The translations under genes and the position numbers were made by a program. DNA of 64,000 nt. Origin: an uncultured bacterium. GTDB lineage: Bacteria; Krumholzibacteriota; Krumholzibacteriia; LZORAL124-64-63. The stretch spans positions 1-64,000 of the forward strand of contig CAVSGO010000006.1 in NCBI GenBank assembly GCA_963727525.1, written 5' to 3'. The notes beneath the pieces were generated by a model. The model did not search any database, was not told the origin of the DNA, and saw nothing but the letters and a program-made list of their open reading frames with translations. Shown in pieces: positions 735-43,738 of this stretch. Every line of letters begins with the position of its first letter. Position 1 is the first letter of the stretch.

Positions 735-889
735 AGAAATCAGGATCGTATCGATGCAAAGCCGCATCTGGTCCAGCGCGGCGGCGACGACCAAAAGGTC
801 TTGCCGATGCAGTTACGGACGTGCAGTGGTGTCTGACCCGAGTAAGCCTTCGGTCACGTAATCGTGTGAGTACAAATAGGCGGTTTCCC

Positions 890-3632: not shown

Positions 3633-3938
3633 TGCCTTGTCCTCCTTGGTCGGCGCCGACAACTCGCAGATCGAAGGGCCGATTCCCTGCTCCGGGGTAT
3701 GCCCAGGCGCGCAATACGTCGCTTGTGGGACGATTGCATAGGCGGGATCTACGTCCTAGACCATTCTTGGTTGCTGTACTTCAAAACTCAATCTGCCACG
3801 GGGGCGCTCGCTGGTATCGCGATCAATTCGAGACCATCGCCGGGAGTGCAGCCGGCTTTCACCCGCGCTATTCTGATCGGGACGCCGACCGACGAACCCC
3901 AGGGGTGCTTTCAGGCGACTAACGCGGGACCGGGTACC

Positions 3939-27028: not shown

Positions 27029-27862
27029 TCATCCGGCCCGTGCCCGACCCTTGGCCGGTAGCAGTCGCATCGTCCCGGGAAACCGCATGCCGAAGGTCTC
27101 GGCGAACACGTGGCGCAGGGCGTCGTCGTCGGCGATGGCATGGATCTCGCGTTCCGTGCCGCGGTCGATGATCAGTTCCTGGTCGCGGAGCGTGAAGCGC
27201 GCGCGGGGGGTGGTGCGCTGGGCGGTGAGGGTCTGGCGGAAGCGCGACTGGGGGTGGGTGGATGTGTAGTGGTTCGCCATCTCGTAGTCGACGAGGTGTT
27301 GTGGCTCCAGGGTGAAGGCGTAGAGGTCGCGCCAGTCGGGGTCGCGCGGGGTGAGGACTTGCAGGACGAAGAGGCCGGTACTCTCCTCGTGCACGCGAAA
27401 CGTCCACGGGCCCTGGATCGACTCACGCTCGCCGCCGAACGGCACCGGGCGTAGAGGACCGTCGCCGCCGAAGCCGACGTCGGTGAGCCAGCGGTCGCTT
27501 TCGGCGTCGACGAGCATCAGCATGTGAGTGCGCGGGTTGAAGCGGCCGTTCACGCGGACGCGAGCGGCGAGCGGCAAGACTGGAAAGCCGAGGTCCTCCA
27601 GGGCGGCACGGAAGAGTCCGTTCTGCTCGAAGCAATATCCCCCGCGGCCGGCCGCGACCAGCTTGCCCTGCAGGCTCGCCAGGTCGAGGCGGATGGGCCG
27701 TCCCCGTATCACGTCGATATTCTCGAAGGGGATGGCGCCCACGTGGGCCTGGTGCAGGCCGGCGAGCACGGCGGCCGTGGCGTCGGTGGGGCCGGTGTAC
27801 CTGATGCGGTGCAGGTACGGTTCGCGCTCGAATCGTGATTCGGATGTGGCGGTCATGGTCAC
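27029..27862 (-). CDS. Arylamine N-acetyltransferase
   Basis: IPFENID, RGGYCFEQN (Cys), THM (His), DVGFG (Asp) triad. Confidence 0.95.
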   Translation of the reverse strand: MTMTATSESRFEREPYLHRIRYTGPTDATAAVLAGLHQAHVGAIPFENIDVIRGRPIRLDLASLQGKLVAAGRGGYCFEQNGLFRAALEDLGFPVLPLAARVRVNGRFNPRTHMLMLVDAESDRWLTDVGFGGDGPLRPVPFGGERESIQGPWTFRVHEESTGLFVLQVLTPRDPDWRDLYAFTLEPQHLVDYEMANHYTSTHPQSRFRQTLTAQRTTPRARFTLRDQELIIDRGTEREIHAIADDDALRHVFAETFGMRFPGTMRLLPAKGRARAG

Positions 27863-28081
27863 CTCATGGGGCGGAGTGTTGACGGGGCAAGCTACGACAG
27901 AACCTCCGAGCGGGCCATGGGACGAGATCTAGGTAATTTCTGTATCTATGGGGTCTTCCCGGATACCGTGTGATTTTTCTCCAGTATTCGCGTCTGGATC
28001 TGATATCGTGCGTCGCACGACCCTGGAGAGCCATCAGGATCTGCTCCGACACGCCCGCTTCGCTCTCCCCGCACCCGGCGA

Positions 28082-31000
28082 ATGGACCCGTGGATGAAGC
28101 TGGGCGACCTCCTTGATATGGTCTCGCGCCTCGACCTCGTGCAGGGGGTCGAGGGCGACCTGCGCCAACGCAAGCGCAAGGGCGTGGTGGCGCTCGTCGT
28201 GGCGGGCATCGTGCAGGTGGTGCTGGCGGCGGCCCAGAAGGACTACCTGCGCGAGGTCGGTCAGCTCGTCAAGAACCTCGCCACCGGCCGGTGGCGCGAG
28301 ATCTTCGCCACCGCAAATCTCGACACGTTGTTCGGCGTGGTGGTGCTCGTGGCGGGGGTGACGATCTTCATCCTCGTGCGCTGGAGCCGCTTCCTGCTGC
28401 ACGAGTCGCAGGCGCCGTTCCGCTACACCTTCTCCATCGCGCCATTCAAGTCGATGCCCGAGGGAGCACCGCCGTCCGACGATCCCCTCGTCGGCAACCT
28501 CGCCCTGCTGCACGACGACCTGATCGACAAGCTCAATGCCAACATCCGCCGCTTCTCGATCCTCGATGTCGATGCGATCAAGACGGCGGCCAGCCAGGAT
28601 CTCAGCTCACACATTCACGTGCACGGCCACTTCGCCCGGCGCGCGCTCGACAGCGGCGAGGACGGCGTGCAGGTGATGACCCGCATCCGCATCGGCAATC
28701 CGGAGCGTCCCGAGCAACAGGCGCCGCGGGTCGACTTCGCCACGACCGATGCCACGGTCACACCCGACGCGCAATACCGCCAGCTCCGGGAGCTGGTGTA
28801 CTCGCGCGTGGCCACGGCAATCTATCACCAGATCCGCGACGACATCCGCCAGAAGATCACGCTGTTTCCCACCTGGTCGTTGCGGGCGGTGGGGCTTTAC
28901 CACGAGGCCAAGGACTTCGAGGAATCGAACACCGTCGACGCCTACGACTACGCAATCGAGCTTTATCAGGAGGCGCTGAACGCTTTCGAGAAGCGCGGCG
29001 GACGGGGGCTGCGCGCCGCCCTCCTGAAGTGGCCCCTGCTGTGGCGCGTCGTGTGCCGGTCGCAGCTGATCGAGGCGCGCACCCGCATCGCCTATAGCCG
29101 TTGCCTCGTGTACCGCGCCACGGTGTCCACCCTCGCTGGCCGCGCGAGCAACCCCCTGTTTCCGGTGCCGGAGCAGCTCGAAGCGGCGCTGGCGGTGTTG
29201 CGCACCCTCTACGACCGCGCACGCGGCGGCCGCGACACCTTCGTGACCTACCCGCGAGCCTGGCGCGCCTCGCATCGGGAGCCGCGCTTCCAGGAGTATC
29301 GGCGCGCGTTGTTCGAGGCGCTGTCCGTGGCTTCGCTGGCGTGGAGCCAGATCGGGTCGACCGACCGGGCCATCGAGCACCTCGACGCGGCCAAGGATGT
29401 GGCGCCCGATCTCACGGAGAACGACGCCCTCTACCTCCTGGCGCAGGCCGAGACCGTGTCCGACTTGCACACGCGCTTGCAGCTCCTGCGCACTGCGTCC
29501 GACATGGCGCCCACCTTCGAGATCGTGCGCTACCGCCTGGCCGACCAGTCGGATCTGCAACTCCGCACGCGCAACGAATTGACGCCCGAGCGGGCGGCGC
29601 CGGTGCTGGCGGCCTTCCTCGACGTTTTGCGCATCAATCCGGGCAACATCGGGGCCTACGCGGCCTTCGGTCACCTCAAATGGCTGCTCGGCGACCATGA
29701 TGCCGCGTCCCGCGCCTTCCGCGAGGGGCTCGCGGTCAAGGCTATCCGCATGCAGACGTACGTGGGCGACCTGAATTACGGTCTGGCGCGGATCGCCGCC
29801 GAGGCCGGTCGGTTCAACGAGAGCTTCGATCTCTACCAGAAGGCGCTGGCGGCCGATCCGGGCGTGGGCGTGCACATCGCGCTGCGCACCCGCTCGCTCA
29901 CGCGGTACTACGATCGCATGGTCGACTCCATGCTCGAGCGCTACGAGCGCTTCATGACGACCGCCATCGCCCGCGGCGGCCAGTGCGACACGGTGAGCGA
30001 CCGCACCCTCGGCGGTGTGCTCAGTTTCGTGCTCAACGACTACGGCAACGCGGCCTTCCAGTACTTCGTGCGCACGGGCCAGGTCGCCTGCTGCGACCGC
30101 GCGCGCGAATCGTACCAGCACGCGATCAAGCGTTTCCCCGAGAATGCCGTGGCGTACTTCAACCTGAGCCGCACGCTCGGCTGGACCGGCTCCTCTACCG
30201 AGGAGAGCATCACGTATCTCGCGCGCGCCGAGCGCCTCGAGCCGAGCTGGCATGCGTTGCAGACGTATTCCATCGAGCAGCACATCACGATCATCCGCAA
30301 GGCGATCCAGTCGCTCGAGAACGACCGCAACGCTGCGCTGCGCCGCCGTTCCGAGCTGGAACGCGAGAGGGCGGAACTCGAGACCCAGCGCGCGTCGCTC
30401 GACGAGAACTACGAGGCGCAGCGGGCGCCCACCACGGCAAAATATGAAGCCGCCAGCCTGACCAAGGGGCCGGATGTGCGGGGCCGTCTCGACGCCGAGT
30501 TGCAGCGCAATGCCGAGGTGCAGACGACCGTCGCGACCGAGATCGACACCATCGGCGAGAAGATCAACAACTACCGGGAGTCGCACCGCACGGAGATCCT
30601 GCCGCGTCTGCGCCGGATGATCCGCGCGTCGAGCCTCAGTTCGTTCCTCGATCTCACTGAACGGCACGACATGACCGAGTCCGTGGCCTCGCTCCTGCAG
30701 AGCCGGCTGCGCAATGACCGGCTCGACGAGAAGTCGGCCACCACCCTGCGCATCCTCGCCAAGCTGATGCCCGATCTGCTCGACGATGCCGACGATCACC
30801 GGAAGCTCGAATGCTGCCGCGACTTCTGCCGCTACGTGATGGACCGCTTCTACCCGGAAGACTTCGAGCTGACGATCACCCTGCAGAACCTGTACGTGCA
30901 ACTCGGCGACCACGACGGCGAGATCGCCTCGATCCAGTCCGTGCGCCGCGCGATCTCGTGGGCGCTGGACGATGATGGTACGAACTGGAATCTCCTCGAC

Positions 31001-32647
31001 TGGGCGCTGAGCTACTTCGACCGGCCGCTCTTCTCGTTCATCCGCGATGACGAGACGGGCCCTGCGCTGGACCGTGCGTTCGCGACCTCCGACAACGAGG
31101 CCGTGCTCGTGCCCGCCGCCGTGGACGATCTGTTCCGCAAGCAGGGCGTGCATCTGTCCGCGAGCGCCATGCTGCGCACGGTGGAGGCGGGGCGTCACTG
31201 GATCATCAGCGATGAGCACAAGCGCACCACGTACAGCCTCGCGCGCGGTAGCGGCGACGGCCGCTTCGACGTGACGTTCGACCTCCATCGCCGCGAGCGC
31301 CACCTGCTCCGTGCGCTCGACAACCTGAACGACATCCGCGACAAGCGACGCAACGCCGTCCTGCACGCCATGCTGGGCGGGGTCTATCGCGACGCCGGAC
31401 GCGACACCGAGGCCGTGATCCAGTACGAGAAGGCCGCCGCCCTGGATCCGCAGGCCTCCACGTACTTCACTCAGCTCGGCAATCATCATTACGTCCACGA
31501 TCGGTACGACCAGGCGGCGCAGGCTTACGACAAGGCGACCCGGCTCGAACCGACCAGCGACACGGCATTCTCCAACCTGGCGCTGGCCGAAGCGGCGGGC
31601 GAGACCGTGGCTCACTGGCAACGTGCCCTCGCGGCGCTCGAGCTGGCGGCGGCGCTGGTGCCCGGCAGCGGCAAGTACGACGATCGGCTCGCGGTGCTGC
31701 GCGAGAAGCTGAAGGCTGCGTCGTGCGTGGGTGAGGCGAATCTCGCGCGATATCCGGTGGTCACGCCCATCGCGTTGGAGGTGGCGGCAGACCTCGTGCC
31801 CTTCGTGGAAGGTCCGCCGGACAGCTCCGACATCTCGATGACCCTCGCCGAGCTGATCCGCCAGATGCGGCAGGGCATCCAGGACCAGTACGGCGTTCGA
31901 ATTCCCGGTGTGCGGGTGCGCGGCAACGAAGGCGACATGGTGCTGGGCACCTACCTGATCATGGTGAACGAGGTGCCGCTCGTGATGCAGTCGGTGCATG
32001 TCGACGCCGCTACGGGCGGCGCCCATGCTCTCGGCGCGATCGTCGCCCAGCTGCGCCTCGTGCTCGAGAACAACCTCGCCGGGTTCGTGGGCGTGCAGGA
32101 AGTGGCGAACCTGCTTGCCGAGGACGACGCGCTGCCGCGGCTCGAGGGGCAGTCGCTTTGCGCCTTCGCCCAGGTGCTGCGGGCGCTCGTCGAGGAGCGC
32201 GTGTCGATCAAGCCGCTGGGGGCCTTGCTCGGGTGCTTCCTGGCCGGCAGTGCGACGAACACACCGCTGTCGGTCATCGTGGAGCAGATGCGGGCGCTTG
32301 CGGATGTGACACCGTCATTGCCCGGTACGGCGTCAGGCGAGCGGCTGCTGCGGTTCGATGATGCGCTGACGGCCAGACTGGCGGCCGGACTGATCATCGA
32401 GGGTGATGTCGCCATGCTGCGCGGCGAACCGGCGCTCATCCAGGATACCCTCGCTGCCGTGCGCGAGGCCACATCCGGCGCCCTGGTCGGGACGGCGTCG
32501 GTCCTGGTGGTGGACGACCCGCGCCTGCGGCGGCCGTTGCGGCGGATCGTCGAGCTGGAGTTCACCGATCTGCCGGTGCTGGCGCGAAGCGAGCTGCCGC
32601 CGTCGGTCTCGGCGGACACGGCGCAGACGATCGGGGGCACGCCATGA
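28082..32647 (+). CDS. Membrane-anchored TPR/coiled-coil protein with C-terminal FlhA/SctV (FHIPEP) cytoplasmic domain
   Basis: Two N-terminal hydrophobic segments, many TPR-like helices, coiled coil; from ~31760 VTPIALEVAADLVP...MRQGIQDQYGVRIPGVRVRGN...FVGVQEV...VLRALVEERVSI...LRRPLRRIVELEFTDLPVLARSEL. Confidence 0.85.
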   Translation: MDPWMKLGDLLDMVSRLDLVQGVEGDLRQRKRKGVVALVVAGIVQVVLAAAQKDYLREVGQLVKNLATGRWREIFATANLDTLFGVVVLVAGVTIFILVRWSRFLLHESQAPFRYTFSIAPFKSMPEGAPPSDDPLVGNLALLHDDLIDKLNANIRRFSILDVDAIKTAASQDLSSHIHVHGHFARRALDSGEDGVQVMTRIRIGNPERPEQQAPRVDFATTDATVTPDAQYRQLRELVYSRVATAIYHQIRDDIRQKITLFPTWSLRAVGLYHEAKDFEESNTVDAYDYAIELYQEALNAFEKRGGRGLRAALLKWPLLWRVVCRSQLIEARTRIAYSRCLVYRATVSTLAGRASNPLFPVPEQLEAALAVLRTLYDRARGGRDTFVTYPRAWRASHREPRFQEYRRALFEALSVASLAWSQIGSTDRAIEHLDAAKDVAPDLTENDALYLLAQAETVSDLHTRLQLLRTASDMAPTFEIVRYRLADQSDLQLRTRNELTPERAAPVLAAFLDVLRINPGNIGAYAAFGHLKWLLGDHDAASRAFREGLAVKAIRMQTYVGDLNYGLARIAAEAGRFNESFDLYQKALAADPGVGVHIALRTRSLTRYYDRMVDSMLERYERFMTTAIARGGQCDTVSDRTLGGVLSFVLNDYGNAAFQYFVRTGQVACCDRARESYQHAIKRFPENAVAYFNLSRTLGWTGSSTEESITYLARAERLEPSWHALQTYSIEQHITIIRKAIQSLENDRNAALRRRSELERERAELETQRASLDENYEAQRAPTTAKYEAASLTKGPDVRGRLDAELQRNAEVQTTVATEIDTIGEKINNYRESHRTEILPRLRRMIRASSLSSFLDLTERHDMTESVASLLQSRLRNDRLDEKSATTLRILAKLMPDLLDDADDHRKLECCRDFCRYVMDRFYPEDFELTITLQNLYVQLGDHDGEIASIQSVRRAISWALDDDGTNWNLLDWALSYFDRPLFSFIRDDETGPALDRAFATSDNEAVLVPAAVDDLFRKQGVHLSASAMLRTVEAGRHWIISDEHKRTTYSLARGSGDGRFDVTFDLHRRERHLLRALDNLNDIRDKRRNAVLHAMLGGVYRDAGRDTEAVIQYEKAAALDPQASTYFTQLGNHHYVHDRYDQAAQAYDKATRLEPTSDTAFSNLALAEAAGETVAHWQRALAALELAAALVPGSGKYDDRLAVLREKLKAASCVGEANLARYPVVTPIALEVAADLVPFVEGPPDSSDISMTLAELIRQMRQGIQDQYGVRIPGVRVRGNEGDMVLGTYLIMVNEVPLVMQSVHVDAATGGAHALGAIVAQLRLVLENNLAGFVGVQEVANLLAEDDALPRLEGQSLCAFAQVLRALVEERVSIKPLGALLGCFLAGSATNTPLSVIVEQMRALADVTPSLPGTASGERLLRFDDALTARLAAGLIIEGDVAMLRGEPALIQDTLAAVREATSGALVGTASVLVVDDPRLRRPLRRIVELEFTDLPVLARSELPPSVSADTAQTIGGTP

Positions 32648-34233
32648 CGCCCCCGCGCACCATCACGGTCCGACTGGGAACCGAGCTGGCGGCGCTCGCG
32701 ACGGGCGTGCCCGCGCTCGCGGATCGCCTCACCGGCGTCGTGCGCGACCTGGTCCACGATCTGGCGATCCCGGTCGACTACACGGTGGAGGTGGTCGGCG
32801 CCGAGGATGGGCGCCAGGTCACGGTGACGATCGACGGCCAGCCCTGCCGCATACCGGTTTCCGTGGCGAGCACCAGCACCGCGACAGGCGACGACCTTGC
32901 GCGCGAACTCGTCGCCGCGCTGCACGCCAGCCGCGAGCTGCTGCTGCCTGCCGACGTCGCCGCGGCGTGCTGGTGCGACTGGATCGACACGACCTCGCCA
33001 CCGCCGGCGGGCACGCTCGCGCTGATGCGTGGTGTGCTGCGGCGCGGTGTCCGCCTCGAACGCCTTCGCGCGGTTCTCGGTTCGCCGATCTCCGATGCCG
33101 ATGCCCTCGAGCAGGCGCTCGCGGCGGTCGACGGACCGCGTTTGCGGGTCTTCGTGAGCACGGAGCAGCACCGGCGACTGTATGACGCGCATGGCGAACC
33201 CATCGCGCTGATTGGCGACTATCCCTCCATCGCGCGGTTGCTGGCCCTCGTCGCGGATGGCCTGTTCTACGAGCTGGGCATCGTGTATCGTCTCGACCAG
33301 GTGGAGACTGACCCGACGCTCGCCCCGGGCGAGATGCGCTTCGCGATCAACGGCATGCGCACGCCGGTGCGGATGGGGCTTCAGCCGGACGAGGTGATGG
33401 TCAACACCACCGTCGATCGGCTCGACCTCGGGGGCCGGCCGACGGTGAATCCGGCGAACCTCAACCCCTGCACCGTGCTGGCGCAGTCGCCGGACGCGCA
33501 GCAGGCGATCACCAGGCAGGGTCTCACGTCGTGGGACGACCATGGCTACCTCATCCTCGAGCTGAGCCAGGCCGTGCGTCGGTACGCCGGCTCGCTCATG
33601 AGCACGGCAGTGGCGCAGTTCCTCTGCGAGCGCTTGCAACTCGCCTTCCCCGACCTCGTGGCGGCGGCCTGCGATCGCTACGACCACGGCACGCTCGCCC
33701 GCGTCCTGCGCGGATTGCTCGACGAGGACATCTGTATCCGCGACCTGCGTACGATTCTCGAGACCCTGCTTGCCTTCCACGGCGTCGTGGACGCGCCGAC
33801 GGGCGAGCTGATCACGTTCCTCTCATCGCCGGGCATCGCGTTGCCCGTCGACGCCGGTTCGCTGCCCTTCCGCGACCCGGTGGTGGCGCGTGTGGAATGC
33901 GTACGCACCATGATGCAACGGGAGATCTCCTCCAGGTACACCCGCGGCCAGTCGGTGCTCACGCCCTTCCTGATCGATCCCGATATCGAGTCGCGGCTGA
34001 AGGACGAGGCCCCGCTGTCGGCCGATGAGCACGCGCGCCTGATCGACGCCATCGGGGTCGAGGTGATGCCGGATCCTGCGCCCACGGCGCCCGTGATCCT
34101 GACCACGGCCACGGTACGCTTGCGCCTGCACCGTGAGATCGAATACGAATACCCGCACGTCGTGGTCCTGGCCTACCAGGACCTGAGTCCCGCGCTGAAC
34201 CTCGAGGTGGCGGCGCGGATCACCTGGAACTGA
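32644..34233 (+). CDS. Soluble FlhA/SctV (FHIPEP) cytoplasmic-domain protein
   Basis: LFYELGI...DPTL, AFPDLV, VLRGLLDEDICIRDLRTILETL, ECVR...REIS, IDPDIE, PVILTT..VR, VLAYQDL; no TM segment; ATGA overlap with the upstream gene. Confidence 0.88.
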   Translation: MTPPRTITVRLGTELAALATGVPALADRLTGVVRDLVHDLAIPVDYTVEVVGAEDGRQVTVTIDGQPCRIPVSVASTSTATGDDLARELVAALHASRELLLPADVAAACWCDWIDTTSPPPAGTLALMRGVLRRGVRLERLRAVLGSPISDADALEQALAAVDGPRLRVFVSTEQHRRLYDAHGEPIALIGDYPSIARLLALVADGLFYELGIVYRLDQVETDPTLAPGEMRFAINGMRTPVRMGLQPDEVMVNTTVDRLDLGGRPTVNPANLNPCTVLAQSPDAQQAITRQGLTSWDDHGYLILELSQAVRRYAGSLMSTAVAQFLCERLQLAFPDLVAAACDRYDHGTLARVLRGLLDEDICIRDLRTILETLLAFHGVVDAPTGELITFLSSPGIALPVDAGSLPFRDPVVARVECVRTMMQREISSRYTRGQSVLTPFLIDPDIESRLKDEAPLSADEHARLIDAIGVEVMPDPAPTAPVILTTATVRLRLHREIEYEYPHVVVLAYQDLSPALNLEVAARITWN

Positions 34234-34246
34234 AGGGAGGTGTCCC

Positions 34247-34429
34247 ATGCCCAAGGCCAGACGGAAGACGGCCAGGAAATCCCCGACGACGTCCAGGACC
34301 AAGCGATGGAACTGGACGCCCCGCCGGCTCGAGACACACACGCCGGATCAGCCGCGCGCCGCCGACAGCGACGCGCTCGTCGACCGGCTCAACGCGCAGC
34401 AACCGGAGCAGCCCCGTTCGCGCAAGTAG
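34247..34429 (+). CDS. Small basic hypothetical protein (60 aa)
   Basis: GGGAGGT RBS at 34235-34241, 5 nt before ATG; fills the gap between operon genes. Confidence 0.55.
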   Translation: MPKARRKTARKSPTTSRTKRWNWTPRRLETHTPDQPRAADSDALVDRLNAQQPEQPRSRK

Positions 34430-34466
34430 TCCGACCACGACCGTGTGGTGACACAAAGGAGAAGGC

Positions 34467-34853
34467 ATGCCTGCCATGACGGAAATCGTGCGCTTCGATC
34501 CCAGCGCCCCGATCCAGATCAACATCGTCTCGCGCTCGCCGCACGTGGTGGCTTTCCGCGTGTGGACGCAAGCGCCCGGTCAGGCCGACTGGGCTACCGT
34601 CTTCACCGGCAAGACCGACGACAATGTGCCCGACCACATCGAGATCGCCGCCTTGCCCGACAACGCGCTCATCGCGTGGTGGCTCGGCGTGGGCGGCAAC
34701 GCCAAGACGCCGTTCCGTACCGTGATCACGCTCGCTCAGGACGGCCGTATCCTCGACGGCGGCACGCGTCTGGAAGAGGGCAAGGTCGACGACGACGGCC
34801 TTGCCTTCGTCGAGGGCAAGATCAACCTCGTCGCCCAGAGGGAGACACCATGA
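34467..34853 (+). CDS. Hypothetical beta-strand-rich cytoplasmic protein (128 aa)
   Basis: AAGGAG RBS, natural composition, ATGA overlap with the next gene. Confidence 0.75.
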   Translation: MPAMTEIVRFDPSAPIQINIVSRSPHVVAFRVWTQAPGQADWATVFTGKTDDNVPDHIEIAALPDNALIAWWLGVGGNAKTPFRTVITLAQDGRILDGGTRLEEGKVDDDGLAFVEGKINLVAQRETP

Positions 34854-35920
34854 CCACGCGAATCCGGATCACGTGTGCAATGTTCGTGCTGGTCGCCGCG
34901 GGGCTCGTGTCTCTGGTGCCGGCACCACTCCTGGCGGTCGACGATGCGAGCAGCGGACTCGATCTGCTATCGCCCCCGGCCTCGCCGGCGTTCACCCTGC
35001 TCGGCGCCACGCCGGAGACGATCCATCGCCCGGAGACGCTCCAGGATCTGGGCGTGGACATGCGGTCGGGCGTTAGCGGCGACGGTCGGGCGGTGAGCGG
35101 ATTCGCGCTCGAGTTCTCGGCCAATCAGATCCTCAAGCCGGCCATCGATCTGAAGCGATACCGCGAGAGCTGGTCGGCCTTCGCGCTGCAGAACCTGCGC
35201 GTGTCGCTGGCCACAGTGCGCGCGGCCGGCGATTCGACGGCCACCGACCTCGCGCTCGGGCTCAGCTTCCCGCTCTTCAACCGCGCCGATCCCATGCGCG
35301 ACAAGGCGTACAGCGATGCCCTCGGCGAGGTTCTCCTGAACGCGGCGCCGTCGCAACCAGGCCAGGACCGCACGATGCTCGAGGCCCGGGCGCGCGAGCA
35401 GCGCCAGGCGCTCTTCGCGCAGTGGCGCGCCGATCACTGGAACGCCTCGCGCGCCGAGATCGCGATGGCGGTGGGCGGCCGGCTCATGGATTCGAAGTTC
35501 GACCAGCTCTACGGCTCGCGCGTCGCGGTGTGGTCGACCCTCGGGCTCCGGCTCGGCACCTGGGGCCAGTTCCTTGCCCTCGCGCGCTACGATCACCTGT
35601 GGGACATCCCGGATCAGCCGGGCGGCGACCAGATCCAGTACGGCGGTCGGATCATCGCGGGTTCGGGTTCGTTCAATCTCTACGTCGAGATGCTAGGGCG
35701 ACGCACGTCCTTCGACACCGCCGTGCTGCCTGATGGCAGCGACTCGGACACGAGCGGTTCGTGGGCCTTCGGCGCCGAGTATCGCATCGCGCAGGGCATC
35801 TGGGTCATGACTGGGCTGGGCAGCCGCTTCGACGAGGCCGTCGCCGGCGCCAGCCGCACGCAGGTGGCTCTGGGCTTGAAGTGGGGCCTCGCCCGCGCGT
35901 CGCGGCTGGGAACGCATTGA
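34850..35920 (+). CDS. Secreted protein, probable outer-membrane beta-barrel
   Basis: Signal peptide, PASPAFTLLG motif, amphipathic strands (WAFGAEYRIAQGIWV, VALGLKWGL). Confidence 0.7.
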   Translation: MTTRIRITCAMFVLVAAGLVSLVPAPLLAVDDASSGLDLLSPPASPAFTLLGATPETIHRPETLQDLGVDMRSGVSGDGRAVSGFALEFSANQILKPAIDLKRYRESWSAFALQNLRVSLATVRAAGDSTATDLALGLSFPLFNRADPMRDKAYSDALGEVLLNAAPSQPGQDRTMLEARAREQRQALFAQWRADHWNASRAEIAMAVGGRLMDSKFDQLYGSRVAVWSTLGLRLGTWGQFLALARYDHLWDIPDQPGGDQIQYGGRIIAGSGSFNLYVEMLGRRTSFDTAVLPDGSDSDTSGSWAFGAEYRIAQGIWVMTGLGSRFDEAVAGASRTQVALGLKWGLARASRLGTH

Positions 35921-35937
35921 TCTGGGACGCCTCGGGG

Positions 35938-37662
35938 TCACCTCGTGAGCATCACCTTCACCGAGCCCGCCCCTGCCGCGGTCTCCAGCCGCACCAGGTA
36001 CGGCCCGGACGCCACGGCGCGGCCAGTGGTGTCGGTGCCGTCCCAGCGCACGATGCGATGGCCCGTCGCCAGAGCGGCGCTGACCAGGGTGGCGATATGG
36101 CGGCCGGCGGCGTCGTACACGCGCAATGACACGTCGCCCGCCACGCACACGTCGAAGGCGACGGCGACCTGCGGGTTGAACGGATTCGGAGCCGCCGTCA
36201 GCGCGAGATCGGTGCGCACCGGCGTATCGTGCGCGCCCACCGAGGGAGCGGCGGCGTCACGCACGAGGCGTACGAAATTGAAGATGCGGATGGCGTCGCC
36301 CTGCGGTCCGTGGCCCTCGTGGTAGTTGGCCGGATCGCCGAACTTGGGATCGCTACGCTGCGCGCCCGCGCCGTGCACGTCGACCCAGCCGCCGTTCATG
36401 TAGCCGAGCGCGCGGCCGAACGCGACGTACGCCGCGAATCCCCCACTCACGGGCCCGCCATTCTGGTGGGTCGTGCTCGACCAGTAGTAGGGGAAGTCGG
36501 TCTGGCCGGCCTCGTTGACGATGGTCGTGGCGGTGAAGAGCGGATCGATGGCAGCCGAACCCGAGGTGTCGGGTGAGCGGGTGTAGTCGACCAGGGATTG
36601 CAGCTCCTTGACGTTCGGGAGACGCCAGTCGTCGTGGCCGAGGAACTGCTCAGCGTTGCACGCGTCAGCCCAGGCGAGCGCATCTTCCCAGGCCATGCCC
36701 TCGCCGCTATCATTCTGGCTCCACATCAGCCCGGTAGCCTGGTCGGTGACCGTGCCGTCGCCATTGTCGACGTAGGCCGTCGTCGCGTACAACGGATTCC
36801 CGCGCACGCACTTCACGTAGAACGTCTTCTGGGTGCCGCCCATGTCCAGTCCGTAGCGCTTGATGCGGCCGTCGGCGAAGTTCACGCCGAAGAGGAGCGA
36901 ACCCGCGGCCTGGCTGACGTAGAGCGTGCGCGAGCCGTACTTGGCGTCGATGACCCGCTCGCCGGCGGCCTCGTCGCCATATGCGAAGTCGAAGACCGAG
37001 GTGTCGAGAAACGGTACCAGGTTGACGGGATCGGACTCGCCGCTCGGGTCGAGGCCACGGAAGTCGATCAGCGAGAACAGCTCCTCGATCATGGGCAGAC
37101 GCCAGTCGTCGTGGCCGCCGTAGTCGATCGCGTCGAGAGTGGCCGGATTGGCTTGCAGCTCGTCCCACGTGAACTTGTCGTCGGCGTCGATGGTGCCGTT
37201 GCCGGCGGTGACCGTGAACGCGGCGCTGGCGCCGGGTACGACGGTGAGCGACTGCGGCTGCCCGGTGATGATCGGCGGCATGTCGCCGCCGGTCGTGATC
37301 GTGAACGCGCCCGGGCCGTTGAACACCAGCTCACCATCGGGGGTCGAGAAGGTGACGACGGCATCCACGGAGCCTGGTGTCGTGTCGGCTGGTAGATCGA
37401 AGCTGGCAATGACGGTGTCCTGGGACGGGTGCGAGATCCCGGTGCCGGTGACGTCGCCGATCGTCACGGCCGCTGGCGCGACGCCCGCCGGCGGCGGAGG
37501 CGGCACGTCGGTATCGAGCGTGAATGTCACGAGCAGACCCACCGTGCCGGCGGGGGCCGTGTCGGGCGCGATGGCCACGATCTCGTTCGTATTCTGGGCA
37601 AACCCACTGGCCGTGGTGGCCACGAGCAGGATGGAGGCAAGCATGGTGACTCGGTGATGCAT
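35938..37662 (-). CDS. Secreted DUF1566 (Lcl C-terminal) domain protein with C-terminal FlgD-like domain
   Basis: Two GHDDWRLP..EL.SL motifs, DNGDGTVTDQATGLMW, YWSSTT, VRLVR; PNPFNP tail. Confidence 0.85.
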   Translation of the reverse strand: MHHRVTMLASILLVATTASGFAQNTNEIVAIAPDTAPAGTVGLLVTFTLDTDVPPPPPAGVAPAAVTIGDVTGTGISHPSQDTVIASFDLPADTTPGSVDAVVTFSTPDGELVFNGPGAFTITTGGDMPPIITGQPQSLTVVPGASAAFTVTAGNGTIDADDKFTWDELQANPATLDAIDYGGHDDWRLPMIEELFSLIDFRGLDPSGESDPVNLVPFLDTSVFDFAYGDEAAGERVIDAKYGSRTLYVSQAAGSLLFGVNFADGRIKRYGLDMGGTQKTFYVKCVRGNPLYATTAYVDNGDGTVTDQATGLMWSQNDSGEGMAWEDALAWADACNAEQFLGHDDWRLPNVKELQSLVDYTRSPDTSGSAAIDPLFTATTIVNEAGQTDFPYYWSSTTHQNGGPVSGGFAAYVAFGRALGYMNGGWVDVHGAGAQRSDPKFGDPANYHEGHGPQGDAIRIFNFVRLVRDAAAPSVGAHDTPVRTDLALTAAPNPFNPQVAVAFDVCVAGDVSLRVYDAAGRHIATLVSAALATGHRIVRWDGTDTTGRAVASGPYLVRLETAAGAGSVKVMLTR

Positions 37663-37802
37663 GGCGAGACTCCCCAGCACGAATGAACCGGTGGGACGAA
37701 TATGAAAGTCAACGCACGAACCACCAGGAAGCAGCGATCGATCTCGTGCGAACGAGGCCCCCGCGCCGGTCGCGGGGGCCTCACCGAAGTCCGCGTTGTC
37801 GA

Positions 37803-38522
37803 TTACCGGTACAGCGACTTCACCGAACCCCACGTCGATGCGTCTGTCTGCATCGACTTGTCGTTCGCACCTTCGATCTCGATCTCCACCTCGGAGCCCG
37901 TGCCGGGGTCGATGCCGACCACGCACACGTCGTCGATCCAGAATTCCTGGCCCCCCACGGCGAAGTGACGCACCGGCCCGCGGAGCTGGCCGACACCCTT
38001 CTTGCCGCCGGGTACCGGAACCTCGCGCACGCCGTACACGACGCCCGGCGCGATGGCGACCGGAGCCATGTCCAGTTCACCGGCGTACACGGGTGCCGCG
38101 TTCACGCGCAGGTTCTCGAACCCGCCCAGGTCGAGCCAGCGGAAGCGCACGCCCGTGACGCGGATGCCGAGTCCCGTGAGATCAAAATCCAGATTCACGT
38201 TATTCTCGCGGCAGATGTTGATCACGCCGAAGTTGGTCGGCGCGCCGGTCGCCGGCTCGATGCGGGCTCCGCCGAAGCCCGACCCACCGCCGGGGAAAAG
38301 GAGCTCGTGAATCGTGACGTCGATCCCGTCCTCGTTGAAGAGCCAGTCGCCCGGCGCGTAGCCGCCGCCGGGGGCGTATACGGTTCCTGCGGCGAGCCCG
38401 TCGAAGGTGACCTCGGCATCGCAGGCGAAGGCGGAACCGGTCAGGCCCGTGAGAGCCGCGAACACCAGACCCAGCGCCACCGCCCCGATCCTCGACACAA
38501 AATCTTGATGAAACTTACGCAT
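37803..38522 (-). CDS. Secreted hypothetical protein ending in TWGSVKSLYR
   Basis: AGGAGG RBS, signal peptide, GGQEFWIDDVC beta-sandwich-like end, terminal motif. Confidence 0.8.
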   Translation of the reverse strand: MRKFHQDFVSRIGAVALGLVFAALTGLTGSAFACDAEVTFDGLAAGTVYAPGGGYAPGDWLFNEDGIDVTIHELLFPGGGSGFGGARIEPATGAPTNFGVINICRENNVNLDFDLTGLGIRVTGVRFRWLDLGGFENLRVNAAPVYAGELDMAPVAIAPGVVYGVREVPVPGGKKGVGQLRGPVRHFAVGGQEFWIDDVCVVGIDPGTGSEVEIEIEGANDKSMQTDASTWGSVKSLYR

Positions 38523-38853
38523 GTCTTGCCTCCTGGCGTGCGAGGCGACTGTTGTGCCCGGGACCATCCCGTGCCGTCCGTCGACCTCGTCTGCCAGCAC
38601 ATGCGCGGAAGGAGATCCGGGTGTGCAGAACAGATCGCTAGTGTGGATGATCCTCGTGGAGCACGGCGGCGGGAAATCCGACCAAACAGCCATCGAACGC
38701 GGCGCCCTGACCCTTCGACAGGCACAGAATCGAATCGTTGTCGCAGTGATCGCGGCCACTGCGGTAGCCCACCACCGCCCCTGTCGTGCCTCCAAACCCT
38801 CCTCTCGAAATCGCCTCGCCAGGCGGGGTGCCGGCCGCCAGGCCAGTCAGATC

Positions 38854-39552
38854 TCACGCCAGATCGAACAGCATGACCTCCGCGTCGCTCGCCGCGGTCA
38901 CGGTCAATGTCTCCTCATCGCTGACCGCGACGCCGTCACTGGTACCGAGCGGCACGCTATTAAGCGTCACCCGGCCGCGCAGTACCTGCAGCCACGCATG
39001 CCGGTCATTCGCGAGTTCGTGGGTGACGGACGCGTTGGAGTCGAGCTGGCCCAGATAGATGTGCAAGTCCTGGTGGATCGTGAGCGACCCCGCAGCGCCG
39101 ACGGGGGACGTGACGAGCTGGAGCGCGTTACGGCGACCCGCCTCGGCGAAGCGCTTCTGCTCGTAGCTCGGCGTGATGCCGGCCCTCTCAGGCAGAAGCC
39201 AGATCTGGTAGAAGTGCAATGGCGTCTCGGACGACGGATTGAACTCACTGTGAGTGATGCCGGTGCCTGCCGACATACGCTGGATCTCGCCGGGTCGCAG
39301 CACCTCGCCGTTGCCCATGGAATCGCGATGTTCGATCGCGCCCTCGAGGACGTAGGTCACGATCTCTATATCGCGATGGGGATGTGTGCCGAATCCCTCG
39401 CCGGGCCGGACGCGGTCCTCGTTGATCACCCGCAAGGCGCGAAATCCCATGTGCTCGGGGTCGTGGTAGCGACCGAACGAGAATGTGTGGTACGTGTTGA
39501 GCCAGCCATGATCGAGGTGGCCGCGTTCCTCGGCTTTCCGGATCGCGAACAT
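38854..39552 (-). CDS. Pirin family protein (YhhW-like)
   Basis: HGWLNTYHTFSF, LRVINED, GFGTHPHRDIEI, HRDSMGN, MSAGTGITHSE. Confidence 0.95.
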   Translation of the reverse strand: MFAIRKAEERGHLDHGWLNTYHTFSFGRYHDPEHMGFRALRVINEDRVRPGEGFGTHPHRDIEIVTYVLEGAIEHRDSMGNGEVLRPGEIQRMSAGTGITHSEFNPSSETPLHFYQIWLLPERAGITPSYEQKRFAEAGRRNALQLVTSPVGAAGSLTIHQDLHIYLGQLDSNASVTHELANDRHAWLQVLRGRVTLNSVPLGTSDGVAVSDEETLTVTAASDAEVMLFDLA

Positions 39553-39673
39553 GTCGACTTCCTTTCTGCCGCGCGCCACATCGGGCGCCGCTGGCGAGAA
39601 GGTACGCACAGGCGAAAAAGACGACAAGAAGGCACCGAATGGATACCGAGTCGCCGCATGGGAGCGAGACGAC

Positions 39674-40414
39674 ATGAACGCATCACCGTCCAGGATCATG
39701 GGGCCAGTCGTGATCCTCATCGGGTTACTCGCGGCCCCTCTCCTTGCGCAGAGTCCCGATACTACCGCGACCGGTCACGACCCCGCACATCCGCCCATCG
39801 ATTGTCCGCTGCGCAAGCAGGGCATCGATCCCGCCCACATGCGGCCGTTCGCGGACGTCGAGAAGTACATCGCGTTTCTCGACCGAGATGATCGGGCCGT
39901 GTGGCAGAAGCCGGACGAGGTGGTGTCGGCTCTCGGTCTCGAAGGCGATGAGACCATCGTCGACCTCGGAGCCGGGTCGGGCTACTTCTCATTCCGGCTA
40001 GCGAAGGCCGTACCGCAAGGCAAGGTGATCGCTGCCGACATCGAACCCGAGATGATTCGCCACATCCACCACAGAGCCATGACCGAAGGCGTGGGTAATA
40101 TCGAGGCGAAGCTCATTACCGCCGCCGACCCCGGGATTCCGGCCGACGTCGATCTGGTGTTCATCTGCGACGTGCTGCACCACGTCCCGGATCGTCACGT
40201 CTGGCTCGAGAAGATTGCGAACGCAATGCCGTCCGGCGCCCGTCTCGTCCTGATCGAGTTCAGGGCGGGCGATCTGCCCGAGGGCCCTCCGGAGTCGGCG
40301 AAGATCCCCCGTGATCGACTCGTGCAACTGGTGACGGACGCCGGTTTCAAGCTGGTGGGAGCGCATGACGAGCTCCTCCCGTACCAGACGTTCCTGATCT
40401 TCGAGAGAGAATGA
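39674..40414 (+). CDS. Class I SAM-dependent methyltransferase with signal-peptide-like N-terminus
   Basis: WQKPDEVV, VDLGAGSGYF, AADIEPEM, DVLHH, LPYQ. Confidence 0.88.
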   Translation: MNASPSRIMGPVVILIGLLAAPLLAQSPDTTATGHDPAHPPIDCPLRKQGIDPAHMRPFADVEKYIAFLDRDDRAVWQKPDEVVSALGLEGDETIVDLGAGSGYFSFRLAKAVPQGKVIAADIEPEMIRHIHHRAMTEGVGNIEAKLITAADPGIPADVDLVFICDVLHHVPDRHVWLEKIANAMPSGARLVLIEFRAGDLPEGPPESAKIPRDRLVQLVTDAGFKLVGAHDELLPYQTFLIFERE

Positions 40415-41086: not shown

Positions 41087-43738
41087 CTAGCGAGCCACCA
41101 CGAGTTTCCGCGTAACGACGCCGCCATCGGTCCAGAGGCGGGCCAGGTACATCCCGCTGGCGACGGCACGGCCCGCGCGGTCGTGGCCGTCCCAGGTCAC
41201 CACGTGGTGACCGGCTTCCAGGGACCCTTGGGTGAGCACGGCCACGCGCTGGCCGCGCAGATCGATCACGTCGAGCCGCACCACGCTCGCGCGATCGAGG
41301 GTGAAGGTGACGCGGGTGGTCGGGTTGAATGGATTGGGTGCGGCTGTCATCTGCGGCCCGGTGACCGCGGGTAGGTCGCCCGGTGCCGCCGTGGGCTCGG
41401 GCGCCGTGATCGAGAACATGCTGCGCCCATGCGTTCCGGCCACGAGCATCCGTGTGGGCTGATGAAACGCAAGGTCCAGCACCGGCACGCGTGGCAGTCC
41501 CGTGCCCAGCGGCGCCCAGTCCGCGCCCGGGTCCTCTGTCACGTACACGCCGACGTCCGTGGCCACGTAGAGCGTGGACGGATGGTCCGGGTCCACGACG
41601 ATGTCATTGACCGGCGCCGCCGGCAACCCCTGCCCGATGTCCTGCCACGAGGCGCCACTGTTCTGGGAGCGGTAGACGTAGCTGATGGGCTCATCCCAGC
41701 GCAACCCGCTGAACGTGACGTAGACGATCTGCGCGCTGGTGGGATCGACAGTGACGCAGGTGACCCAGCGTTGCGGCAAACCGGCAGTGATGTCCGTCCA
41801 GTTGCCCATGAGCGGATTGAGGCGCCACAGACGCCCATCGTCCGTGCCGGCATACACGACGCTCGTTGTCGAAGGCGCCACGGCGATCGTCGTGATCGTG
41901 CCATAGCCCATGCCGTGATCGCCGTATGTGAGGTCGCTGCTGATCGGCTGCCACGAGCCGGCGGCATCGGTGGTCCGGTAGACGCGCTGGCTGCCGTAAT
42001 AGAGAACATCCGGGTTCGACGGGTCCATCACCACCGGCGTCATCCAGTTGTGTCGATCGTTGCCGCCGATGCCGTCGGTGGCGGGGTTGAAAAAGGTTCC
42101 GCCGTTGGTCGACTTGTAGAGGTTGCCATACTGGTACTCGGCGTAGATGACGTCGCTGTCGGTGGGATCGACGAGACAGTAGAATCCGTCACCGCCGAAG
42201 ATCGCTTCCCAGTTGTCCGCCCCGCCCGCGGGCGTGCGCAGCGAACCGTTGTCCTGGGTGCCGCCATACAGACGCTGCGGCTGAAGCTCATCGACGGCGA
42301 TGGCGTAGAACTGGCTCGTGGGCTGATCGTAGAGCTTGCTCCAGTTCGAACCGCTGTCGCCCGTGTGGTAGAGTCCGCCGTCGTTTCCCTCGTAGGCGAC
42401 CGCGGGCTGACCGAGGCAGAACGCCAGCGCGTGGTGATCGACGTGCATGTTGCCGCCCTCTTCGAACCAGCTCGAGCCGCCGTTCGTGGATCGGACCATG
42501 GGCACGCCGAGCGCGAATACGTTGTTCGGATTCGAGGGATCCACGCGGATGTTGCCGAAGTACCAGCCGAAATCGCTGTACATGCCAGACAGGGCGGCGT
42601 CATTGGTGCGCGTCCAGGTGTCGCCGCCGTTGGTGCTCTTGTAGACCCCCGCGAAACCGGCAGCGGCATCGGCGTAGATGGCATAGAGCACGTTCGCCTG
42701 GCTGACGCACTGGGTCAGGCCGATGCGGCCCACGTTGCTGCCCGAGGGGAGACCATTGGTCAGTTCCTGCCACGTGTCGCCACCATCGGTGGTGCGCCAG
42801 ATGCCGCTCGACGGGCCGCCGCTACGCCGATAGTTCAGACCGCGCACGCGCTCCCACATGGCGGCGAACAGGATGTCGGGGTTCGTGGGATCCATGACGA
42901 GATCGGTCGCGGCCGTGGAGTCGGTGAGGGCGAGACAACGATCCCACGTGGTGCCCCCGTCGTTCGTCCGGTAGATCCCGCGATTCGGCCCGGTGCCGAA
43001 GAGCTTGCCCGTGGCCGCGACGTAGATGCGGTTGGCGTCGGTAGGGTGCACGCGGATGCGCGCGATGTAGCGCGTGTCCGCGAGGCCGATGTTCTGCCAG
43101 GTCGCGCCGGCGTCGGGCGACCGGTAGAGCCCCAGGCCGAAGAAACTGTAGCTGTTGGCGTTGGCCTCGCCGGTGCCGGCGTAGATCACGTCGGGGTTCT
43201 GTGGATCGAGTGCGACGGCCCCGACCGGCAACACGGCCTGAGCGTCGAAAAGCGGCTCCCAGGTGACGCCGCCGTCGCTCGTACGCAGCACACCGCCACT
43301 GGCCGTGGCCGCGTAGGCGATGTTCGCATCGGTGGGATGCACCGCGAGATCGGTGATCCTGGCGCCGATGTTGGTGGGCCCGCGCTGTTCCCAGACGCCG
43401 TCCAGCAGCAAGCTCTTGTCTCCGGCGTCCCGCCGCAGCGCCTGCAACTGGTCGAGAGCCTCGGCGTCCGCGAGCATGGTGCGTAGTGCGTTGGCCTTGA
43501 TATCTCCGTGCGGATAGGCGCGCTGTCTCCAGAACCACTCGTTGGGCCGGGCGTTCGGCTCTTCGCCTTCGGCTTCCTCGTGTTCCAGCGGTGGCGTCGC
43601 ATCGGCGTCCATGCTTGCAGCAGGCAGCATGGCGAGATCGGCGTTTGCAGGTTCACTGGCACCGCGGGGTCGCAGGACGAGAGCCCCCAGGGCGATCACG
43701 ACGAAGATGACGACGAGTGCGAGGATACGGCGGTGCAT
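41087..43738 (-). CDS. Secreted VPS10/BNR-repeat beta-propeller protein with C-terminal FlgD-like domain
   Basis: Many S/TxDGGxTW Asp-box repeats, HVDHHAL, GNDGG, GGTQDNG, THGR; PNPFNP tail. Confidence 0.9.
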   Translation of the reverse strand: MHRRILALVVIFVVIALGALVLRPRGASEPANADLAMLPAASMDADATPPLEHEEAEGEEPNARPNEWFWRQRAYPHGDIKANALRTMLADAEALDQLQALRRDAGDKSLLLDGVWEQRGPTNIGARITDLAVHPTDANIAYAATASGGVLRTSDGGVTWEPLFDAQAVLPVGAVALDPQNPDVIYAGTGEANANSYSFFGLGLYRSPDAGATWQNIGLADTRYIARIRVHPTDANRIYVAATGKLFGTGPNRGIYRTNDGGTTWDRCLALTDSTAATDLVMDPTNPDILFAAMWERVRGLNYRRSGGPSSGIWRTTDGGDTWQELTNGLPSGSNVGRIGLTQCVSQANVLYAIYADAAAGFAGVYKSTNGGDTWTRTNDAALSGMYSDFGWYFGNIRVDPSNPNNVFALGVPMVRSTNGGSSWFEEGGNMHVDHHALAFCLGQPAVAYEGNDGGLYHTGDSGSNWSKLYDQPTSQFYAIAVDELQPQRLYGGTQDNGSLRTPAGGADNWEAIFGGDGFYCLVDPTDSDVIYAEYQYGNLYKSTNGGTFFNPATDGIGGNDRHNWMTPVVMDPSNPDVLYYGSQRVYRTTDAAGSWQPISSDLTYGDHGMGYGTITTIAVAPSTTSVVYAGTDDGRLWRLNPLMGNWTDITAGLPQRWVTCVTVDPTSAQIVYVTFSGLRWDEPISYVYRSQNSGASWQDIGQGLPAAPVNDIVVDPDHPSTLYVATDVGVYVTEDPGADWAPLGTGLPRVPVLDLAFHQPTRMLVAGTHGRSMFSITAPEPTAAPGDLPAVTGPQMTAAPNPFNPTTRVTFTLDRASVVRLDVIDLRGQRVAVLTQGSLEAGHHVVTWDGHDRAGRAVASGMYLARLWTDGGVVTRKLVVAR

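Follow-up and report, generated by a model that had tools for sequence, protein, structure and literature searches.

We analyzed a window of 64,000 nucleotides (positions 1 to 64,000 of contig CAVSGO010000006.1, from an uncultured bacterium of the Krumholzibacteriota) and, within it, a block of five open reading frames (ORFs), g1 to g5, that run in close succession and in the same direction on the + strand at 28082-35920. The first two genes, g1 and g2, carry real cytoplasmic C-terminal domains of FlhA/SctV (FHIPEP, PF00771; here FlhA/SctV-C or FlhA-C) without the membrane gate. With a probability of about 0.5, we regard this pair as one case of a widespread hub of two FlhA-C domains that is independent of type III secretion systems (T3SS) and belongs to a system of the conflict or immune type. 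To our knowledge, work on FlhA/SctV-C has been confined to its part as the ring that sorts substrates in flagella and injectisomes. The features of the pair are as follows.

28082..32647, + strand: g1, 1521 aa, long form, with a transmembrane (TM) hairpin, a conserved stretch of helical/TPR-like character, a coiled coil and TPRs and, C-terminally, a type-1 FlhA/SctV-C domain; GC content at third codon positions (GC3) 0.89
28175..28399, + strand: g1 aa 32-106, two TM-like hydrophobic helices (Kyte-Doolittle windows of at least 1.6; kept in 9 other long-form proteins)
28400..30481, + strand: g1 aa 107-800, long-form-specific part in which TPR-like helices and a coiled coil come after a small alpha/beta domain (phmmer)
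31298..31681, + strand: g1 aa 1073-1200, canonical TPR block beside the FlhA-C domain (Pfam TPR_1, TPR_2, TPR_8, TPR_11, TPR_12)
31718..32632, + strand: g1 aa 1213-1517, type-1 FlhA/SctV-C domain (g1C) with subdomain 2 deleted (Pfam FHIPEP, E 3.5e-18)
32644..34233, + strand: g2, 529 aa, soluble, extra domain at the N-terminus, then the whole type-2 FlhA/SctV-C domain (Pfam, structure model, Foldseek)
32644..33228, + strand: g2 aa 1-195, family-specific N-terminal domain (model with a high predicted local distance difference test score, pLDDT; hhalign)
33229..34230, + strand: g2 aa 196-529, type-2 FlhA/SctV-C domain with the invariant motif DGLFYELG (Foldseek match to 6wa6, E 1e-23)

Both proteins scored above the FHIPEP cut-off of 29.1 bits. 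The match of g2 (98.7 bits) covered profile positions 363-533 and 545-655, and that of g1 (65.9 bits) placed residues 1319-1509 on profile positions 456-656, with a second stretch on positions 323-406. Positions 1-310, the polytopic gate of about eight TM segments, were unmatched in g1 and g2, in agreement with an initial annotation of this DNA that had described C-domains lacking the N-terminal gate. The full-length NCBIfam models TIGR01398 and TIGR01399 gave 48-87 bits on the two proteins, against cut-offs of 692-772, and hydropathy revealed no TM segment of note in g2. We modelled g2 from a 64-sequence alignment (pLDDT 93.2; predicted template modelling score, pTM, 0.93). Residues ~196-529 of the model superposed on whole chains of CdsV-C, FlhA-C, YscV-C, EscV-C, InvA-C, MxiA-C and SsaV-C, with Foldseek E values of 1e-17 to 1e-23 and target-normalised TM-scores (TMt) that ranged from 0.70 to 0.84 among the matches listed and from 0.76 to 0.84 among the CdsV chains. 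The FlhA-C fold suspected at the outset is therefore borne out for g2. The closest solved structures are those of Chlamydia CdsV-C (6wa6) and Yersinia YscV-C (7qij, 7alw). By fold match, g2 has all four FlhA-C subdomains; g1 has them only in part, its subdomain 2 being deleted. That domain of g1 could otherwise be aligned end to end with the type-1 domains of relatives, and the corresponding positions 81-126 of the hidden Markov model (HMM) were empty in 2 of 44 type-1 domains, those of g1 and L169, in a set that did not include L066. This deletion and the two TM-like segments of g1 (aa 32-54 and 73-106) had not figured in the initial annotation.

The closest homologues (P0006, P0007 and P0019) stood at 40-53% identity, and the identity of g2 to the FlhA-C domain of the host was 32% over 172 residues. 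Comparison of the N and C parts of g2 with hhalign gave a weak, collinear likeness to FlhA-C subdomains 1 and 3 (E 3.6e-4); because of this similarity, aa 1-195 may be a degenerate partial duplication of FlhA-C. Proteins in which type 1 and type 2 are fused have a linker of ~60 aa in place of this domain. In PHROGs, g2 weakly matched a single phrog of unknown function.

The two genes had been called an orphan, and in this respect the initial annotation did not hold. At E<=1e-3, an exhaustive HMMER search with g2 returned 1688 cluster representatives, of which 966 passed E<=1e-10 and 342 passed E<=1e-30. Most of the best 150 matches had 330-700 aa, and there were also fusions of ~1,300-2,100 aa. 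We examined 160 loci, consisting of 80 of 456 relatives from species-representative genomes and 80 of 107 from metagenomes, and typed their ORFs by local HMMs; the loci were picked by the motifs DGLFYELG and VLSYQELSP taken from g2, so the sampling is biased. Canonical-length proteins with TM and C-terminal domains accounted for 87 of the 160 loci, nearly all of them labelled Myxococcota, Deltaproteobacteria or Bdellovibrionales, and in 17 others the g2-type gene was cut at a contig edge. The remaining 56 loci comprised 47 adjacent type-1/type-2 pairs, 8 fusions and a single exception, so that 55 of 56 were paired. The type-1 gene lay immediately 5' of the type-2 gene in all 47 (including L104, where the ORFs overlap), and in the fusions type 1 came first with type 2 behind it on a single chain. 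At the exceptional locus (L113:2501-5002) a tyrosine-recombinase ORF of the phage-integrase family runs in frame into the g2-type gene with no type-1 gene upstream, which may represent a mobile-element insertion.

All 7 type-1 proteins that were scanned with Pfam were rich in TPRs and had an FHIPEP match spanning profile positions ~311-656. The type-1 copy is always C-terminal on a TPR-rich protein, and the type-2 copy is on the next gene or fused behind it. The initial annotation had proposed a ring domain coupled to a TPR sensor and an outer-membrane protein, and the first half of that proposal, the pairing and the TPR coupling, is conserved across the 55 loci, 8 of them fused.

Some loci were duplicates of one another (L096/L103, L059/L158/L159, L100/L101), and 43 were left after collapse at 90% identity or more. 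We calculated a tree of 108 C-domains (quick IQ-TREE run, LG+G4, SH-aLRT support; 90% collapse, unpaired rows dropped, L066 excluded), in which 43 of 44 type-1 rows formed one clade (support 99) and all 44 type-2 rows another (support 90). The mirror-tree correlation of patristic distances over the 44 pairs was r=0.72, compared with a maximum of 0.33 among 1000 permutations. Type 1 and type 2 are co-diversified, diverged paralogues of the FlhA/SctV cytoplasmic domain. Profiles of both types matched injectisome CdsV/YscV best (E 1e-57 to 1e-70; against CdsV, 3.8e-70 for the g2 type and 2e-62 for the g1C type), with weaker matches to flagellar FlhA (E 1e-26 to 1e-40). The g2 type grouped in the tree with canonical-length SctV-like proteins (support 97-99), and these sequence relationships suggest that this canonical SctV lineage may have given rise to the gate-less family or may have a common ancestor with it.

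The canonical-length SctV-like proteins (~705-790 aa, in L021-L084 and L121-L157, for example L068:8825-10948) have the motifs DGLFYELG and VLSYQELSP in common with the g2 type. Unlike the pair, they keep the N-terminal TM domain and are encoded by single genes with no TPR/FlhA-C partner.

The initial annotation had reported that T3SS genes were missing here. In the host genome outside g1 and g2, FHIPEP (the canonical FlhA), FliP and FlhB matches were confined to C7:975306-980177, a stretch of another contig; FliI, FliQ and FliR were not searched for separately. Across 40 relatives of the host, the sole g2 match was canonical FlhA (E 4.5e-6 to 7.7e-17; ~700-776 aa where the contig was uncut), none of the 40 had a second FHIPEP protein, and there was no T3SS locus at this place. 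A g2 match at E<=1e-20 was found in 1 of 208 genomes of the host phylum, that of the window itself. By record labels, relatives of the pair occur in at least 8 phylum-level groups, with a lean to Chloroflexota, Acidobacteriota, Bacteroidota and Myxococcota. We did not detect FliP in any of 5 pair-holding genomes, two archaeal-labelled bins (Methanomicrobiales and Heimdallarchaeota) and three Bacteroidota, and FHIPEP matches in these 5 genomes fell only on profile positions 311 and above and only on the pair proteins. Both archaeal-labelled bins contain TFB genes, but on contigs other than the pair's, so the pair's contigs are archaeal by bin label. The module is patchily spread across bacterial phyla and archaeal-labelled bins and has been laterally acquired.

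We also modelled the two FlhA-C proteins together, as had been suggested for hetero-multimers. The heterodimer of g1 residues 1187-1521 with g2 reached an ipSAE (interaction prediction score from aligned errors) of 0.84, whereas the best of 3 controls scored 0.01. Among 80 solved complexes 58 attained this mark, and among 110 mismatched pairs 2 did; these counts hold only roughly, since we used alignments of our own. Contacts agreed across the runs to at least 95%, with a partner pLDDT of at least 86. The modelled contacts involve the segment before g1C, at the position of the FlhA linker, and the subdomain-3 helices of both chains. Lateral contacts of this kind are found in FlhA/SctV rings. 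On this model g1C and g2 probably bind each other, and the fusion of the two copies in 8 loci, together with their strict adjacency, likewise argues that they work in one complex. We consider it very probable that the module is independent of T3SS and heteromeric.

To characterize the surroundings of the pair in other genomes, we scanned up to two neighbours per side at the 43 de-duplicated loci (125 ORFs; four L066 ORFs were omitted for size). The commonest neighbour Pfam families were CHAT (10), caspase C14 (9), TPR_2 (7), EAD2 (6), TIR_2 (3), NACHT (2) and FGE-sulfatase (2), and the other 117 families mostly occurred once or twice each. A CHAT or caspase gene lay upstream in 16 of the 28 de-duplicated loci with at least 1.5 kb of upstream sequence, or in 17 if L017 is counted, which depends on the overlap threshold. 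Several arrangements recurred. One runs from a ~355-aa protein through a CHAT protease and the TPR/type-1 protein to the type-2 protein. The ~355-aa proteins form a conserved soluble family, always encoded two genes 5' of the pair and before CHAT (L006:4581-5636, L096:3969-5030 and 8 others), which matched no Pfam, PHROG or other family; their domain is joined to the type-1 protein in L009 and L105. Another has two EAD2-bearing caspase proteins followed by a fused type-1/type-2 protein. EAD2 is present only on the two caspase proteins; we looked for it on the fused FlhA-C proteins as well and rejected it, as there was no match at E<=1. EAD7 gave a weak match on one CHAT protein. In a third arrangement, that of L014 and L104, a TIR-NACHT-FGE-sulfatase protein lies upstream, and FGE-sulfatase is also fused to the type-2 protein. 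NACHT, STAND or AAA_16 proteins were found upstream in L009, L014, L104 and L169 and were absent from most loci.

The L009 protein (745-5223, 1493 aa, in a Candidatus Thiodiazotropha bin) combines a STAND-type NTPase (nSTAND1/AAA_16) with a third, divergent FHIPEP-C domain at its C-terminus and is encoded 5' of the pair. A double zinc ribbon (Pfam) is common to CHAT proteins and some type-1 N-termini (L096:5066-6646, L023:5395-9324, L098:381-3776) and may be a homotypic adaptor between protease and hub.

The window holds the long form of g1, whose first ~600-1000 residues are common to 9 further loci, of which 5 are labelled Pyrinomonadaceae, Blastocatellia, Promineifilaceae, Aquiflexum and uncultured Bacteroidetes bacterium and 4 are on metagenome contigs. 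The public gene call for g1 begins at M5 (28094) and gives 1517 aa. The part in common begins with a short N-terminal helix and two TM helices. Right after the second of these stands an invariant PFRYTF motif, and a small alpha/beta domain and TPR-like helices complete the region. Residues 107-800 matched L066, L111, L064, L019, L016, L120, L031, L163 and L102 (phmmer E 1e-55 to 1e-236), and PFRYTF, SHIHIxG and RIGP are invariant columns of the alpha/beta domain. None of the 5 long-form loci with upstream context had a protease, and the flanks were unrelated housekeeping genes; the long form therefore looks self-contained. We also asked whether the N-terminus of g1 was a fused CHAT, caspase or 355-aa family domain, and rejected this, there being no HMM match at E<=0.01. 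A model of residues 1-520 (pLDDT 74) has long helices at 24-49 and 80-110 with low pLDDT. A fold search with this model returned only TPR proteins and a low-TM match to CadC, with no recognisable enzyme or pore fold, and residues 1-480 matched only TPR-like clusters in the ESM Atlas. The TM-like helices represent a membrane anchor and a possible output module. In P0107 a DUF4118 membrane domain is joined to two FHIPEP-C domains, which shows that membrane tethering recurs.

At one of the long-form loci, on a metagenome contig, a phage-tail-sheath-like gene stands immediately 5' of the pair (L102:1720-3291).

We propose that the linker and subdomain 3 would hold the two FlhA-C copies together as lateral neighbours, as in an FlhA ring, to build a heteromeric, ring-like hub, and that the TPR array would sense or recruit a ligand or gate the assembly. 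Once assembled, the hub would act by induced proximity to switch on an output. For most relatives this would be the CHAT or caspase protease encoded next door, in some cases joined by TIR-NACHT or STAND partners. For the long form, which the window holds, it would be the membrane-inserted N-terminal hairpin module of g1, acting for example by membrane perturbation; this membrane-effector step is doubtful. The role of the module would lie in conflict, immunity or regulated cell death. By analogy with the neighbours in other genomes, a conflict or immune role has slightly better than even odds. A fuller version of the proposal is more tentative and less probable than the role itself: the FlhA/SctV ring would have a second, T3SS-independent life in bacteria, and it seems in archaea too, as a heteromeric, TPR-gated oligomerisation hub, either an "apoptosome without an NTPase" or one plugged into STAND proteins, that triggers caspase-family proteases or the hairpin for immunity or cell death.

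Three further genes follow g2 closely and bear on these interpretations.

34247..34429, + strand: g3, 60 aa, basic, probably disordered, local (GGGAGG 7 nt upstream; GC3 0.89)
34467..34853, + strand: g4, 128 aa, acidic, local (ORF; no family match in Pfam, NCBIfam, PADLOC or PHROGs)
34850..35920, + strand: g5, 356 aa, N-terminal signal-like segment, putative outer-membrane beta-barrel, local (hydrophobic aa 4-32)

The arrangement of the block was as first described, five coupled genes in one direction with two ATGA overlaps and ribosome-binding sites on the small genes. The overlaps join g1 to g2 (32644-32647) and g4 to g5 (34850-34853), the gaps are 13 nt between g2 and g3 and 37 nt between g3 and g4, and Shine-Dalgarno-like motifs stand just 5' of g3 (GGGAGG), g4 (AAGGAGAAGG) and g5 (GGGAGA). 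GC3 was 0.87-0.89 in all of g1-g5, a host-like codon bias. For g3 we also considered a 79-aa frame with a GTG start and rejected it, since its GC3 of 0.59 is not coding-like. Pfam, NCBIfam and PHROGs returned no family for g3, PHROGs none for g4 or g5 either, and a PDB sequence search with g4 and g5 gave no credible match. In the ESM Atlas, g5 scored 0.97 to unnamed clusters and just 0.87-0.88 to outer-membrane barrel families. A collection of 5.8 billion proteins held three homologues of g5, one of which is P0178. The gene was absent from all 40 host relatives and from all 5 genomes holding the long form, and no homologue of g3, g4 or g5 was found at any of the 160 related loci (phmmer E<=1). 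For this last reason the outer-membrane half of the coupling proposed in the initial annotation is unsupported. Genes g3-g5 appear to be local passengers or a lineage-specific add-on outside the conserved module.

Several observations weigh against a conflict or immune hub at this locus. Scans of g1-g5 with Pfam and NCBIfam found no protease, EAD (effector-associated domain), TIR or NTPase, so the conflict role is carried over to the window from its relatives. PADLOC-DB 2.0 assigned no defence family to the five genes, its only match being a chance-level LmuB hit (E 0.006) on the coiled coil of g1, and the wider neighbours (NAT, DUF4097, EamA, glucodextranase) form no recognisable defence island. 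A scan of viral contigs turned up no relative of the pair, and one of plasmids gave only canonical SctV/FlhA at 26% identity or less. That the TM hairpin is an effector is purely something we infer; its model is poor (pLDDT <50 for g1 residues 1-34), and it matched no known pore-forming domain in Pfam. As homomeric FlhA/SctV-C rings have been solved, the passing score of the modelled complex may reflect that likeness and not binding of g1C to g2. The model is of a 1:1 heterodimer only, and a strictly alternating heteromer would be incompatible with a nonamer. The loss of subdomain 2, seen in just 2 of 44 type-1 domains, means that the window instance may be atypical. Finally, the tight coupling of g3-g5 to g2 argues that these genes may be of local importance.

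The same anatomy would also fit a non-immune scaffold for regulated proteolysis or signalling, developmental or stress-related, in filamentous or social microbes, with clients held by the TPRs. Caspase/CHAT proteases and TPR scaffolds have non-immune signalling uses too, and the position outside a defence island and the negative PADLOC result point the same way. However, the module is very patchy, being present in 1 of 208 genomes of the phylum, its partners vary (TIR, NACHT, EAD2, FGE-sulfatase) and its accessory genes turn over. Such features are typical of conflict systems and not of conserved developmental pathways, and we consider such a scaffold unlikely. Of the functions offered in the initial annotation, defence or signalling fits best, given the CHAT/caspase, EAD2, TIR, NACHT and FGE-sulfatase neighbours, and export gained no specific support. 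A minimal non-canonical export or sorting device, in which a tethered ring docks g3 with g4 as a chaperone-like protein and g5 as the outer-membrane part, would build on the established role of FlhA/SctV-C in docking chaperone-substrate complexes and on the membrane anchor that the two TM-like segments give g1. The close spacing of g3-g5 behind g2, the signal-like N-terminus of g5, whose nearest named Atlas clusters are outer-membrane barrels, and the absence of g5, like that of g1 and g2, from the host relatives would also suit it. Yet g3-g5 have no counterparts at the 160 loci, nor g5 in the 5 long-form genomes; the pair occurs in archaeal-labelled bins (labels only), where an outer membrane is not expected; and each g1 contributes two TM helices with no recognisable channel or energy-coupling domain. 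The neighbours elsewhere are proteases and STAND/TIR proteins and not envelope proteins. Because the pair adjoins caspase-like proteases and immune-type sensors in other genomes, defence or signalling is the likelier function, and we judge an export device to be improbable.

Still less probable is that the pair modulates the flagellar FlhA ring of the host or serves as its decoy, for instance through chaperone titration by a soluble copy or through its intercalation into the ring. The host does have one flagellar export gate, and g2 keeps the four subdomains, but this idea from the initial annotation is not supported, as all 5 tested pair genomes lack FliP and the gate domain and all other flagellated relatives lack the pair. 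Both paralogues are also nearer to injectisome SctV-C (CdsV, YscV), g2 being only 32% identical to the host FlhA-C. The view that g1 and g2 are decayed T3SS fragments or an annotation artefact could appeal to the presence of C-terminal domains only and to the missing subdomain 2 of g1C. It is effectively refuted by the long intact frames, the GC3 of 0.87-0.89, the high-confidence fold and an architecture common to hundreds of relatives. Moreover, the 40 relatives have no T3SS at the site, and close relatives lack the genes altogether.

The hub of paired FlhA-C domains that we favor resembles FlhA/SctV in the fold of the C-domain, in the linker and C-terminal motifs and in the predicted lateral contact through linker and subdomain 3. 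It differs in lacking the polytopic gate domain and the partners FliPQR, FlhB and SctRSTU, and in consisting of two obligately paired paralogues instead of one homomeric subunit. Its domains are joined to TPR arrays and sometimes to STAND, DUF4118 or FGE-sulfatase, and it occurs in taxa without T3SS. Conflict systems of multicellular prokaryotes (Kaur, Burroughs, Iyer, Aravind 2020; PMC7159879) are EAD-coupled and centred on STAND/NTPase proteins, with EADs, FGS domains and caspases among their parts. The accessories of the relatives (caspase/CHAT, EAD2, EAD7, TIR, NACHT/STAND, FGE-sulfatase, TPR), the patchy pattern with lateral spread and the lean of the host range to Chloroflexota, Acidobacteriota, Bacteroidota and Myxococcota are like those of these systems. 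Unlike the systems described there, the core is an FlhA-C pair and not an NTPase, and NTPase, EAD and peptidase are all missing from the locus in the window. No mention of FlhA, FHIPEP, SctV, T3SS or flagell- occurs in the main texts of PMC7159879 and PMC8195603, supplementary tables excluded. A TPR array also works together with a CHAT protease in the immune setting of TPR-CHAT (Csx29), part of the type III-E CRISPR "Craspase". Csx29 unites TPRs and CHAT in one protein on a Cas effector, whereas in relatives of the pair CHAT is a separate gene upstream of the TPR/FlhA-C gene. Unlike Craspase, the module has no CRISPR component that we could see, and the window has no CHAT. In a literature search that reached some sources only in part, we met with no account of gate-less FlhA/SctV-C proteins and with none that links them to TPR, CHAT or caspase proteins.

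We consider the module to be a new type of system that puts a known domain to a putative function in conflict or immunity. A co-evolving, gate-less pair in non-flagellated Bacteroidota and archaeal-labelled bins suggests that the ring is a portable assembly module, and its wiring to TPR sensors, caspase/CHAT proteases and STAND/TIR proteins points in the same direction. If the pair does serve as a hub of immunity or cell death, it would be a new type of core scaffold for prokaryotic immunity, would offer a soluble, naturally heteromeric ring for structural study of T3SS assembly and gating, and would link immune signalosomes and the secretion-gate ring in their evolution. In one public source such proteins go under the names "type III secretion protein V" and "TPR repeat protein", and naming of this kind can falsely imply a secretion system in genomes that have none.

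The surroundings of the block were likewise as first described, with an upstream patch richer in AT and two flanking genes on the opposite strand.

27863..28081, no strand assigned: upstream intergenic stretch, presumed promoter region (GC 0.59, compared with ~0.68 around it)

A scan of the stretch upstream of g1 did not find a sigma-70 consensus, and a promoter/terminator scan of 27600-36300 found neither. The flanking genes, both on the - strand, encode an arylamine N-acetyltransferase (NAT, PF00797) and an Lcl_C/DUF1566 protein (PF07603). In a synteny comparison of the insertion site, the NAT gene was present in just 3 of 30 relatives.

Two long ORFs of the window, at 37803-38795 on the - strand and 38521-39891 on the + strand, overlap each other, with no Pfam match for either. 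The Lcl_C/DUF1566 protein (35938-37926, - strand) and a Sortilin-Vps10/BNR protein (41087-43738, - strand) are both large and secreted-looking and end in a C-terminal FlgD_ig-like domain, which could be a common C-terminal sorting or anchoring tag.

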